DNA from: Callorhinchus milii | Lineage: Eukaryota | Reading direction: 5' to 3' | Assembly (NCBI RefSeq): GCF_018977255.1 | Contig: NW_024704742.1 | Coordinates: 4,652,001-4,716,000, forward strand | Length of the DNA: 64,000 nucleotides | Shown: in pieces, positions 40,701 through 59,769 of the stretch | How positions within the stretch are numbered: position 1 is the first letter of the stretch | Layout: each line of letters starts with the position of its first letter | Program-made: the position numbers and the translations under genes | The notes under the pieces: generated by a model | Told to the model about the DNA's origin: nothing | Database searches by the model: none | What the model saw: the letters and a program-made list of their open reading frames with translations, nothing else

Positions 40701-41585
40701 GTGGGCAAAAGAGGTAACACTAAAGAGAGAAACGATCGTCAGTGTTGGAGGGGGTTAAGCTATGACAGATGACTAAATAGGCTAAGGTCTTCAGCGGAAT
40801 CCGACAGAGGTCTGTAAGAGGCTGAACTGAGAAAGAAAACTTTCAGATACTCGAAGGTCGCAGGACGAGGGCTCAGGTTCAGGGTTGTAAAGGGCAATTT
40901 TAGGACAGATATTATTTCTTTACACTCGAGGTCATTGACAGCTGGGATGGGTTTTCAAAACGAGTGGTCAAGCTAGGAAACTGGGTTTATTTAAGACATT
41001 TAAGAAACAGCTTGCGATAAAGAAACTTTTAAAAACATGCTTTATTGGGAAGACTGTGGCGCAGATATTATAGAAGAATGAGATGTTGTAATGGGAAGAC
41101 TCTGCTGTCATGGTAATTAGTTATTATTGTGGAAGGATGATATAAAATGGGCTGAAAGAGCCATCATCCAAATCTTCTTACTGATTCAATTCAGTTTGCT
41201 GTCATCAAAGTGTATGAGTTTTTCATGAGAGTAATATAGATTAATTTTCAAATGTGGTTTAACATACCAGCAACTACGAAATAAGGTCAAATGCGCAATA
41301 GCTGCATTTTGCTGATGTTTGTGTAAATATTTTTGTTCCGTTTTATAATGTACGCTGGAGGTGCAATATGAGCGACAAGGGCCTGCCTGAAACTTCCTCT
41401 CTTCATATTCTGCTCAGGAACTATATGCTCTTGGTGGATTAAAACTGTTAACTCTACATTAGAAAATGATGTACTGCGTGGTTTCAAAATATTGCTGACA
41501 CACATATTACACTTGCATAGACGATGGGACTGTGCATTATTGCGTTACTAAATTAGACATCTTTTTCTGATGTTTTTCTAAACAG

Positions 41586-41779
41586 AGTGAAGACAGTCCA
41601 AGTCCTAAGCGCCAGCGCCTCTCTCATTCGGTTTTTGAATACACAGCAGTATCTCCTGCCCCATCACCACCAATGCGACCATGGGAGATGACATCTAACA
41701 GGCGACCTCCCTCGGCTCGACCCAACCAACACCACTTCTCAGGGGAAAGATGCAACACACCTGCACGAAACAGAAGAAG
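41586..41779 (+). CDS. RNF38: RNF38 coding exon A (SEDSPSPKRQRLSHSVFEYTAVSPAPSPPMRPWEMTSNRRPPSARPNQHHFSGERCNTPARNRR); internal ATG of MRPWE at 41673
   Basis: Translation is nearly identical to the recalled human RNF38 segment. Acceptor tttctaaacag|AGT, donor AAG|gtaatg; 194 nt, phase 0 to 2. Confidence 0.95.
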
Positions 41780-45675: not shown

Positions 45676-45976
45676 AATTGTGATCGTGCAGTTAGTTGTA
45701 ATCCCACGCTACATGTCAATTGTGCAAGAACACATTAATTGTAATCGTGCAATGTTTATGACAAATATCAATGTATCACCTGTGATTACCATGACTCAAC
45801 AAAGCAATTTAATTATTCCAAAAGGCAAATATTACTTGTGTGTAGTGGTGTTGATTTTTTGTGCTGTTAGCACCAGCTAATGTTTTGCTTTACTGCAAAG
45901 GTCATGAATGATAAAATATTCAGGCCAGTGTTATTCAAGTACTTTTTTTTTCTGACTACGATCTTGTTTGGTTCAG

Positions 45977-46190
45977 TCCTCCAGTCAGACGCCAGCGAGG
46001 GAGACGAGAAAGGCTAACCAGACATAGTTCTATGAGCCAAGATGAAAATTATCACCACCACCCTTATGGACAGCAACCAGCAGTAGAGGAGCCTAGAGCA
46101 TTTCACCCTCCGAATGTATCTCCACGAATGCTGCACCCTGCTGCACACCCTCCCCAGCAGAATGCTGCAATGGTTGACATCCATGATCAG
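45977..46190 (+). CDS. RNF38: RNF38 coding exon B (SPPVRRQRGRRERLTRHSSMSQDENYHHHPYGQQPAVEEPRAFHPPNVSPRMLHPAAHPPQQNAAMVDIHDQ)
   Basis: ttcag|T acceptor, CAG|gtacgt donor; 214 nt, completes the split Ser codon from exon A; overlaps ORF 46032..46274. Confidence 0.96.
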
Positions 46191-49169: not shown

Positions 49170-50178
49170 TCCTCCCCGTTCTCTCCAGCTTCAACATGAA
49201 CAAGATCCAAATCATTCAAAACTCTGCTGCTCGTTCCTCACCCATATCGGGCTCTACACTCCCTTCACCCCAATTCTTGCCAGGATCCACTGGCTTCCTA
49301 ATGCAGAACTAATCGATTTTAAGTACCTGACTCTCATTTTCAAATCACTTCACGCTCTTGGCACTTCCATACTTTTCCGATCTGCTCAGCCGGTTTGCAC
49401 ATAACTTCGTCCCCTCCTCTCCAGCGTTGGCGGCCGTGCACTCAGCCACTGTGCCCCGAATCTCTGGAACTTCCTCCCTTTATCGCCCCTCTTTGCCCTT
49501 CTTCAACTCACATCTGACTTTTCGACTGTGCCTTGGGTCATCTCCACTCTCATTCCAGCTCGGTGTACAACACACAGCACCGTTAAGCACTCTGGGATGT
49601 TACTTGCATGAAGGGTGCTATATAAATGCAAGTTGTTGTAAGTCATAGTCAAACGTTTGTTACCTACAGATATATTTAAGCTCTCGTGCATATTTTCATT
49701 ATAATAATAATAATCCTTGCATCCAGCTCATTCAGAACTCTGCCGCCCGCATACTGACCCCAACCAAACTCACCAGCTCTGGCCCAGGCTCCACTGGCTC
49801 CCCATCACCGAACGGATCGACTTCAAGATCTTCACACTCATGTTCAAATTCCTTCACTCTCGGGCACCTCCCTTACCTCTCCGACCTCCTCCACCACCCG
49901 GCGCCTCCGCTCGACTGGCACCGACTTCCTGCTCGGCCCTCGAACCCTCCGCCCCACCATTGGAGGTGGCGTTTTCAACCCGAAACCCTGGAACATTCTC
50001 CCTCAATCCCTCCGCCTTGCCCCCTCCCCTTTTCACGTCCCGCCTGAAAACTTTCCTCTTCAACCGTGCTTAAGACCACCTCTCAACACCCTCCCCCCCG
50101 CTTCACCGCTGTTAAGAGCTGTAGCTCTGAGACGCTAACCTGCGTGGAGGGCGCTTTATAAGTGCAAGTTGTTGTTGT
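49170..50178 (+). mobile_element. Two tandem L2 3' fragments (49170-49640, 49715-50178)
   Basis: IHWLPNAELIDFK and LHWLPITERIDFKI; both end in ...aa(a/g)tgcaagttgttg. Confidence 0.88.
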
Positions 50179-50268
50179 ACGTTGAATAGCGCGTGGCATA
50201 TGCTGAATAATAGAGAAAATATCAGCAAGGATGAAAGTGCTGTTAATCCATCTTTGAATAATAACTAA

Positions 50269-50487
<219 letters not shown>

Positions 50488-50845: not shown

Positions 50846-51484
50846 CTTATTGGTGTGGAAATGGAACTGCACAATCAGGGTTTAAGGTAGCATATTAAAT
50901 GGTGATATTTTGAATTGATTTTGAAAGTTGAGTTAAATCCCCAGCCTTTCCACTGCTGAGAGCTGGGTTTGAATCCAACCCACAAACAATTTTATTAATG
51001 AAGTGAACAATTTTAACCTCATTTCATGTGCTACCAAGTGTGCAGCGTAATATTTCCATAATTTAACCGATCGGCCATCTCATTCAAACAAGCCATTAGT
51101 AACCAATTGTATTTGGGTGATTGTTGACCAGGACAAATTCCTGATGTGTGAGGCTTGAACCTTCTGCTCAAGAGCGCGACCAACTGAGGCAGGCTGACAA
51201 CTCAGGCTCTCTCATCTACCCATTCCTGCATGTCCTCACCCCCTCCCTACCTCTGCATGACCTTTTCTAGCCTCCTCCGTAAGGAGACTCGAACCTGCTG
51301 TGGATTCCTCGCCCTCACTAAATCACCATCGGCGGACAAGGCTTCAGCCACTATCCCCCTCTTGAAGCTCCCGCCCTAAATCCCTCTGATTTTCACCCTC
51401 TATTTGCCTTTAAAGCTTCCTGAAAAACCTACTCTTTGACCATGCCTGAGGCGGTCACTCAGATGACCACTATTAAGGAGGGAA

Positions 51485-52093
51485 CCATTAGGTTCAAAAG
51501 TCAGGAAGTTATGATGAACCTTTATAAAACACCAGTTAGACCTCAGCTGGAGACTGTGTTCAGTTCTGGGCCCCACACTTTAGGAAGGATGTCAAGGCAT
51601 TGGAAAGGGTACAAAGGAGATTGACCAGGATGGTACCAGGAATGAGGGACTTCAGTAACCAGGAGAGGCAGAGAAGCCGGGATTATTCTATTGGAGCAGA
51701 GAAGGTTAAGAGGAGACTTCATAGAAGTTTTCAAAATTATGAGGGGATTCGATAGGGTGAACAAGGAGAAACTATTCCCACTGGCGGGTGGGTCGGTAAC
51801 CCCGAGAACGCCAATTTAAAATAGTTGTTAAAAGAAGCTGAGGGGAGGTGAGGAGAAATTTTTTCACACAGTGAGTTGTTCACATCTGGAATGCATTGCC
51901 TGAAAGGCTGGTGGAAGCCAATTCGATAACAACTTTTAAGATAAGTAGATAATTATTTGGGAAGGACAGGTTTGCAGGGCTATGGGAGAGAGCGGGGGAG
52001 TGGGATTGGTTTGGATAGCTCTTCTCAAAGAGCTGGCACAGACACGATGGGCTGAATGCCTCCTTGTGTGCTGTATAATTCTATGATTCTATG
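51485..52093 (+). mobile_element. CR1-clade LINE 3' end, inserted into an L2 remnant
   Basis: [11 protein letters not shown] and [17 protein letters not shown] motifs; ttctatgattctatg terminal repeat; L2 sequence at 51230-51465 and L2-type tail at 52094-52168. Confidence 0.92.
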
Positions 52094-52240
52094 TACAGTA
52101 AAGTCTCTTAGAGATCTTTGAGATGTTGCCCTACATGAACGGTGCTTTATAAATTGAATCTGTTGTGTTTCCGTATACAGTTTTGCCAGTAATGGGCGTT
52201 TTTGAGCTACTTTATCATTGTACAGTGGTGTTTAAGGTTT

Positions 52241-52312
52241 GTGAAGATTTATCAGGGCACGATTCCTGTCTCATACACTGGGATATGGTGTCAATTTGTA
52301 CAGGCCAACATA
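52241..52312 (+). pseudogene. Decayed partial duplicate (pseudo-exon) of RNF38 exon C
   Basis: gtgaag-ATTTATCAGGGCACGATTCCTGTCTCATACACTG vs gtgcag-ATTCATCAGGGCACCGTTCCTGTTTCATATACCG (28/34 identical), then TTTGTACAGGCCAACATA vs TTTGCACAGGCCAACATA after a deletion. Confidence 0.85.
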
Positions 52313-52453
52313 CAGAGATAATTATTTTTCTGAGATAGCTCAGATCTATTTAAGCCAGTTTATGACAGTTTATTTTCTGTGTTTAAAATAACTCAAGTTG
52401 CTGCAAGCACAGAAATCTAAGTAAAATTGTCTAATGTTTTCTTTCCCCTCCAG

Positions 52454-52624
52454 ATGCTCCAAGCATGTTCTGTCCAACATCTCCCAGTTCCTTATGCTGC
52501 ATTCCCTCCACTTATCTCAAGTGATCCGTTTATATTACATCCTCCTCATCTGTCGCCACACCATCACCCCCATGTGCCTCCACCAGGCCAGTTTGTCCCT
52601 TTCCAGACACAGCAATCGCGATCG
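52454..52624 (+). CDS. RNF38: RNF38 coding exon D (MLQACSVQHLPVPYAAFPPLISSDPFILHPPHLSPHHHPHVPPPGQFVPFQTQQSRS)
   Basis: cccctccag|ATG, TCG|gtaagt; 171 nt, phase 0-0. Confidence 0.96.
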
Positions 52625-59607: not shown

Positions 59608-59769
59608 CCTTTACAAAGGATAGAGAATGAAGTGGAGTTATTGGGGGAGCATCTCCCTGTTGGAGGTTTTACCTACCCTCCGTCACCACACCCTCCAACT
59701 CTGCCTCCATCTGGCCCACTCCAGTTCCTACCACATGATGCTCTTCACCAAGAGCTGCCCTTTGGAGTA
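59608..59769 (+). CDS. RNF38: RNF38 coding exon E (PLQRIENEVELLGEHLPVGGFTYPPSPHPPTLPPSGPLQFLPHDALHQELPFGV); gene continues beyond the window
   Basis: tttttttgccag|CCT, GTA|gtgagt; 162 nt, phase 0-0. Confidence 0.96.

Follow-up and report, generated by a model that had tools for sequence, protein, structure and literature searches.

A decayed partial copy of an RNF38 coding exon in the intron downstream of its parent in Callorhinchus milii

The intron downstream of exon C of RNF38 in Callorhinchus milii contains, at 52240-52312, a degraded copy, in direct orientation, of the 5′ portion of exon C, with the acceptor AG included. The copy was most probably a short partial duplication, non-functional from the start and now decaying neutrally, as judged from its extent, its divergence and its flanking sequences. 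All positions refer to the window, which is the whole 64,000-nt stretch of DNA that was analysed (NW_024704742.1:4652001-4716000, from an assembly of 991.5 Mb).

Extent and significance of the copy

The gene harbouring the copy was identified as RNF38 by protein comparison of exon C. All 56 aa encoded by this exon matched RNF38 from Amia, Polyodon, Pristis, Huso, and Polypterus at 100% identity, and most other vertebrate RNF38 among the matches listed were 93-98% identical to it. With shark RNF38 and sawfish RNF38 as tblastn queries, and with the exon ends read from the sequence, the RNF38 exons were placed at about 41577-41777, 45975-46190, 50296-50463, 52454-52624, and 59608-59769. Exons C and D are both frame-symmetric (168 and 171 nt), and the intron between them is 1990 nt long. 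The features of the copy and its neighbouring exons are as follows.

50289 to 50377, forward strand: template segment, consisting of the last 7 nt of intron B-C and the first 82 nt of exon C, defined by local alignments
50296 to 50463, forward strand: exon C of RNF38, parent of the copy, 168 nt encoding 56 aa, in phase 0/0, from translation and tblastn
52240 to 52312, forward strand: decayed copy, 73 nt, defined by local alignments to 50289-50377 in the same orientation
52319 to 52321, forward strand: TAA closing the frame opened at 52247, from translation; the stop-to-stop frame is 52193-52318, 42 aa
52454 to 52624, forward strand: RNF38 exon D, 171 nt, phase 0/0, with the boundaries ccag/ATG ... 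CGATCG/gtaagt and the tblastn end at 52624

The copy consisted of two blocks. Block 1 (52240-52278, 39 nt, 85% identity) began 7 nt inside the intron, where the copy has TGTGAAG and the parent TGTGCAG with the AG kept in both, and block 2 (52292-52312, 21 nt) showed 90% identity. Between the two blocks, 13 nt stood in place of the 29 nt of the parent, giving a net loss of 16 nt, and the offset between copy and parent was 1951 nt in block 1 and 1935 nt in block 2. The larger indel can also be written as an in-frame 21-nt deletion. The distances reported by an earlier reading of the sequence alone (referred to here as the sequence-only reading), about 2 kb downstream of exon C and about 200 nt upstream of exon D, corresponded to the measured 1951 nt and to the 207 nt between the start of the exon part of the copy and the start of exon D at 52454.

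The local alignment of the copy with its parent scored 33, while the other 632 tiles of the window, taken on both strands, gave a mean score of 10.8 (sd 2.2) and a maximum of 18. None of 3000 random window segments of the same length reached 33, their maximum being 15, which confirmed the earlier description of a tandem duplicate of the 5′ end of exon C with its AG. The copy is single in the 991.5-Mb assembly, where its sole match was its own position, and a genome search with exon C returned, below E 0.3, exon C itself as the sole match. Within the window, neither the 3′ half of exon C nor its donor had a copy anywhere (maximum score 17, equal to the background), and exons A, B, D, and E had no intronic copies. 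Read from 52247, the copy gave IYQGTIPVSYTGIWCQFVQANIQR followed by the stop TAA at 52319-52321, in agreement with the translation reported before.

Exon D itself showed variable use in other vertebrates. Five predicted RNF38 isoforms from alligator and primates (P0027 and P0049-P0052), among the 120 proteins compared, joined exon C straight to the exon that follows D, with the join reading …CSVPPP/PLQRIENE…. Since exon D is skipped in these five isoforms and is frame-symmetric, it acts as a cassette exon in the annotations.

Splice signals, relatives, and codon pattern

Homology stopped sharply at both ends of the copy, as shown by local scores compared with the null. The two flanking stretches are listed below.

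52167 to 52239, forward strand: spacer upstream of the copy, without homology to the sequence preceding exon C and without a polypyrimidine tract
52313 to 52453, forward strand: intron between the copy and exon D, without homology to the remaining exon C or its donor and without a good donor-like site

In the upstream flank, the comparison of 52167-52239 with 50176-50288 (73 versus 113 nt) scored 7 against a null mean of 8.4, so that no homology was detected between the two spacers. In the downstream flank, 52313-52453 (141 nt) scored 11.5 against the remaining exon C plus 237 nt of intron, with a null mean of 11.0, and the genome repeat search gave no multi-copy matches in this stretch.

The acceptor AG of the copy (52245-52246) was retained. 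The fraction of pyrimidines between positions -25 and -4 (22 nt) was 0.45 for the copy versus 0.82 for exons C and D; the sequence-only reading had cautioned that the tract was weak, and our results showed that it was absent. Among the GT dinucleotides of 52250-52453, the best one agreed with 5 of 9 donor consensus positions versus 7-8 of 9 for exons B-D, as scored by a crude consensus count and not by a trained splice model. Since the adjoining exon part has changed by only about 15%, ordinary decay cannot turn a tract like TTTTCTTTCCTTC into the present purine-rich sequence, and the polypyrimidine tract was probably never part of the copied segment.

The proposal that the copy had been one half of a mutually exclusive exon pair was not supported by these features. 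The copy kept the AG, with the tract and the donor absent; it is 73 nt long against the 168 nt of exon C, with a net loss of 16 nt and a TAA at 52319 interrupting the frame; the 3′ half and any homology in the flanks were lacking, and such an exon occurred in none of the 120 listed proteins. The arrangement of two adjacent homologous exons was found in the 5′ part only, with the second one lying in the next intron in the same orientation. The copy corresponded instead to an intronic exon remnant, with significant homology to one of its own gene's exons, an intronic position, and a location outside repeat families.

The sequence-only reading had suggested looking for an intact second exon C in relatives. 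The protein comparison, which covered 120 of 185 matches, revealed no vertebrate RNF38/RNF44 protein with a second QG..P..Y motif, an IYQG word or a QGTIP word, and none with extra residues between exons C and D. A metagenome contig of 6529 nt (L010), which carries exons B and C of a tetrapod-like RNF38 and looks like host or environmental animal DNA, was compared at the DNA level. It ends before exon D and therefore gave a partial intron comparison, in which 2361 nt of the intron 3′ of exon C held no copy of its own exon C or of the patch found in the window. A conserved second exon was seen neither in the 120 proteins nor in this intron, the relatives compared at the DNA level being distant ones. 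A second locus (L011) represented a more distant RNF38 relative with short introns.

The six early differences described before were reproduced in the first 33 coding nt, where four were synonymous third positions and two were H>Y and V>I. Over the 54 coding nt that could be read in the parental frame, nine differences were counted, of which five were synonymous and four were non-synonymous (H>Y, V>I, P>S, and L>I); transitions made up seven of the nine. The stretch after the deletion depended on the alignment, which either kept GGGAT with about 5 extra bases or gave CCA>TCA, CTT>ATT, and TGC>TGT. Among the three changes listed there by the sequence-only reading, TGC>TGT was recovered in one alignment, while GGG>GGT and ATC>GTC were not given by the aligners and depended on the gapping chosen.

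The inference of past protein-level selection from this codon-aware divergence did not hold. Against plain neutrality, the synonymous excess was borderline (P 0.05-0.09 for kappa 1 to 4), but plain neutrality is the wrong null, because the residues of exon C have remained unchanged since the split from ray-finned fish and the changes of the parent had to be synonymous. Under a null with a drifting copy and a parent changing only at synonymous positions, the expected synonymous share was 0.40-0.45 and P was 0.28-0.39, a comparison of low power with only nine differences, and the substitution pattern of the copy was compatible with drift at this power. The mild synonymous excess can be attributed to the very strong purifying selection on the parent exon C, whose own changes were synonymous only. 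In general, comparing a copy with a constrained parent yields a synonymous excess even without selection on the copy, and an outgroup is required. The caveat on CpG decay was valid to a limited extent: the CpGs of the parent (ACC/G, at two places) held at most two differences, and CpG decay accounts for a minor part of the differences.

L010 and L011, both RNF38-like loci from metagenome contigs, were tried for polarising the synonymous differences. The third positions of L010 matched the copy at GTC, TAC, and ATA and matched the parent at TGC, in an outgroup that is distant and at sites that are saturated. L011 differed from L010 at several third positions (e.g. TAT/TAC/TAC/TAT), and both loci were too distant and saturated for this purpose. 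The RNF44 paralogue of the same genome was rejected as an outgroup, its matching exon being only about 60% identical and lacking the first residues.

Origin of the copy

The repeats around the copy bear on its origin and are listed below.

49406 to 49639, forward strand: third SINE-like element, of the same family as the next two
49955 to 50175, forward strand: SINE-like element beside exon C, ending 113 nt before the template segment
about 51305 to 51494 together with 52094 to 52166, forward strand: older SINE-like element close to the copy, interrupted by the 600-nt repeat and ending 73 nt before the copy
51495 to 52093, forward strand: high-copy interspersed repeat of about 600 nt, with at least 40 genomic copies scored at 89-92% identity

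The repeat of about 600 nt, at intron positions of about 1029-1630, had 11267 first-look candidates genome-wide. Of the 1951 nt between parent and copy, about 600 stem from this repeat, and the two were about 1.35 kb apart before its insertion. The repeat matches stopped at 52093-52126, and none lay over 52240-52312. The SINE-like family was represented by three same-strand copies within 3 kb, each about 230-260 nt long with GCTTTATAAATGCAAGTTGTTGT-like tails and pairwise identities of about 66-81%. The element near the copy was 71% (tail) and 66% (body) identical to the element on the side of exon C, versus 77% and 71% to the third element. On these identities, the simplest reading is that the three elements would be independent insertions of a locally dense family. 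With its 13-16% divergence, the patch appears to predate the insertion of the 600-nt repeat, whose copies are about 10% apart, and its age appears not to exceed that of the SINE-like family, in which copies differ by about 30%.

In the explanation favoured here, about 89 nt of genomic DNA across the intron/exon boundary would have been copied once, in the same orientation, into the downstream intron. The copy carries intron bases and not the end of exon B, which shows that the template was genomic DNA rather than spliced mRNA. Lacking a branch point, a polypyrimidine tract, the 3′ half and a donor, it would never have been a whole exon and would have been dead on arrival, and it would then have drifted as neutral intron DNA, gaining about 13-16% substitutions and frame-shifting indels. 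The mechanism may have been a templated insertion or a template switch during break repair or replication, either being consistent with the sharp ends, the short length and a template lying close by in cis; the template was 89 nt, and the offset was 1951 nt (about 1350 nt before the repeat insertion). Equally possible as the mechanism would be a tandem duplication that was partial and had one of its ends within the exon. Inspection for junction microhomology revealed no clear shared bases beyond the ends of the patch, at junctions that are old and decayed.

Several other sources of the copy were considered. A retrocopy of spliced mRNA was ruled out by the presence of intron bases and the absence of the end of exon B, and a transposon-carried copy was ruled out by the single-copy state of the patch and by the end of the repeat matches at 52093-52126. 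A 3′ transduction by the upstream SINE-like element, like a larger duplicated unit, was unsupported, the spacers being unrelated and the two elements not being closest relatives. An assembly artefact was ruled out too, since parent and copy show about 15% divergence as well as indels.

A larger dead segmental tandem duplication, comprising the SINE-like element, the spacer and the start of exon C, with the other parts erased later, is an unlikely origin. It would explain why the SINE-like element, a spacer of 73-113 nt and the exon C start are collinear at both places (offsets 1991, 1951, and 1935), and the intron did take at least one later insertion. However, the spacers were dissimilar, scoring below their null mean, though the SINE-like copies could still be aligned, with about 70% identity; the element near the copy was no closer to the element beside exon C than to the third one; and with three such copies in 3 kb, the arrangement can be due to chance. 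Equally, the fossil of a complete tandem exon duplication, once an alternative or mutually exclusive exon C and later killed by deletions, seems improbable. The symmetry of exon C (168 nt, phase 0/0) would have made a duplicate swappable in frame, and the loss of flank homology beside an exon part that is 85-90% identical would also be expected after long selection followed by the recent death of a second exon. A formerly coding copy would loosely fit the kept AG, the writing of one indel as an in-frame 21 nt, and the differences, of which five of nine were synonymous and the remainder (H>Y, V>I, L>I, and P>S) were conservative. Against this reading, more than half of the tract would need to have changed, versus about 15% of the adjoining exon part, no trace of the 3′ half or the donor was present, the codon pattern was not significant when tested against drift of the copy beside a constrained parent, and such an exon was found in 0 of the 120 vertebrate proteins listed and not in L010. 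The more specific idea that the patch is what survives of a second exon C, mutually exclusive in early cartilaginous-fish RNF38 and lost in this lineage, is quite improbable. If it were true, the second exon would have carried H>Y and V>I within a near-invariant segment of 56 residues, and an intact second exon C might persist in a living chimaera, shark or ray.

A function of the copy today, either as a weak acceptor leading to an NMD isoform or as an intronic decoy or binding site that tunes the inclusion of exons C and D, is very improbable. The AG was kept, and the frame coming from exon B or from exon C would run into the TAA at 52319, a stop to which the sequence-only reading had pointed; exon D is skipped in five of the 120 predicted proteins, which indicates variable splicing around this intron in other vertebrates. 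The acceptor nevertheless stood in a poor context (pyrimidine fraction of 0.45), the indels and the divergence of about 15% resembled drift, and no sign of conservation was seen in L010. A literature search found nothing linking RNF38 with “poison exon”.

Comparison with known systems

The patch is a new instance of a common and known class, the intronic look-alikes of exons. Ivanov and Pervouchine (2022) described, for human genes, 4,027 targets in introns with homology to annotated exons (PMC9013439), and the survey of Letunic, Copley and Bork (2002), as cited there, reported exons duplicated in tandem for about 10% of animal genes, as well as over 2,000 candidate exons that lacked annotation. 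Like the intronic exon homologues described in PMC9013439, the patch lies in the same gene, in the same orientation, close by, at 85-90% identity and off repeats. Unlike them, in a survey focused on expressible candidates, the patch is half an exon, without donor or tract and with a broken frame. Its biological weight is little, as exon-derived intron scraps number thousands per genome, although it could be of use as a presence/absence marker and, roughly, as a neutral clock in this slowly evolving genome.

Exons 5a and 5b of the SCN-alpha genes, as presented in PMC12772994, are a mutually exclusive pair born by tandem exon duplication. The patch is similar to this pair in being a local duplication of a frame-symmetric coding exon (PMC12772994). 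Pairs of the 5a/5b type, as portrayed there, have equal length, intact splice sites, vertebrate-wide conservation and RNA support, none of which is shown for the patch. Short templated insertions and template switches have been described as MMBIR, as FoSTeS, and as short-range switching in ape genomes (PMC8421209, PMC7954356, PMC2583991). The patch resembles the insertions portrayed in these sources in its size of about 90 nt, in its cis template within about 1-2 kb and in its abrupt ends, which ignore the exon boundary. It differs from them, as they are described there, in showing neither visible junction microhomology nor complex rearrangement, for an event that is old and whose junctions have decayed.

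The patch is also similar to poison exons, in that the AG at 52245-52246, if used, would meet a premature stop 72 nt later. Conservation and RNA support are usual for the known poison exons. Unlike them, the patch is without shown conservation, and the use of its acceptor is hypothetical.

Two further observations were made at RNF38 and its paralogue. The copy and exon D share a reading frame by chance (52244-52624), and tblastn fused both into one gapped match covering query residues 303-416; this shared frame could mislead automatic annotation. At the RNF44 locus of the same genome (G000:C13:4780363-4783946), both strands carried RNF44-like exons within 4 kb. The forward strand matched residues 274-460 of a skate RNF44 in rising order, and the reverse strand, just upstream, matched residues 454-564; the part matching exon C was only about 60% identical. 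This strand switch could be an inversion or an assembly mis-join.
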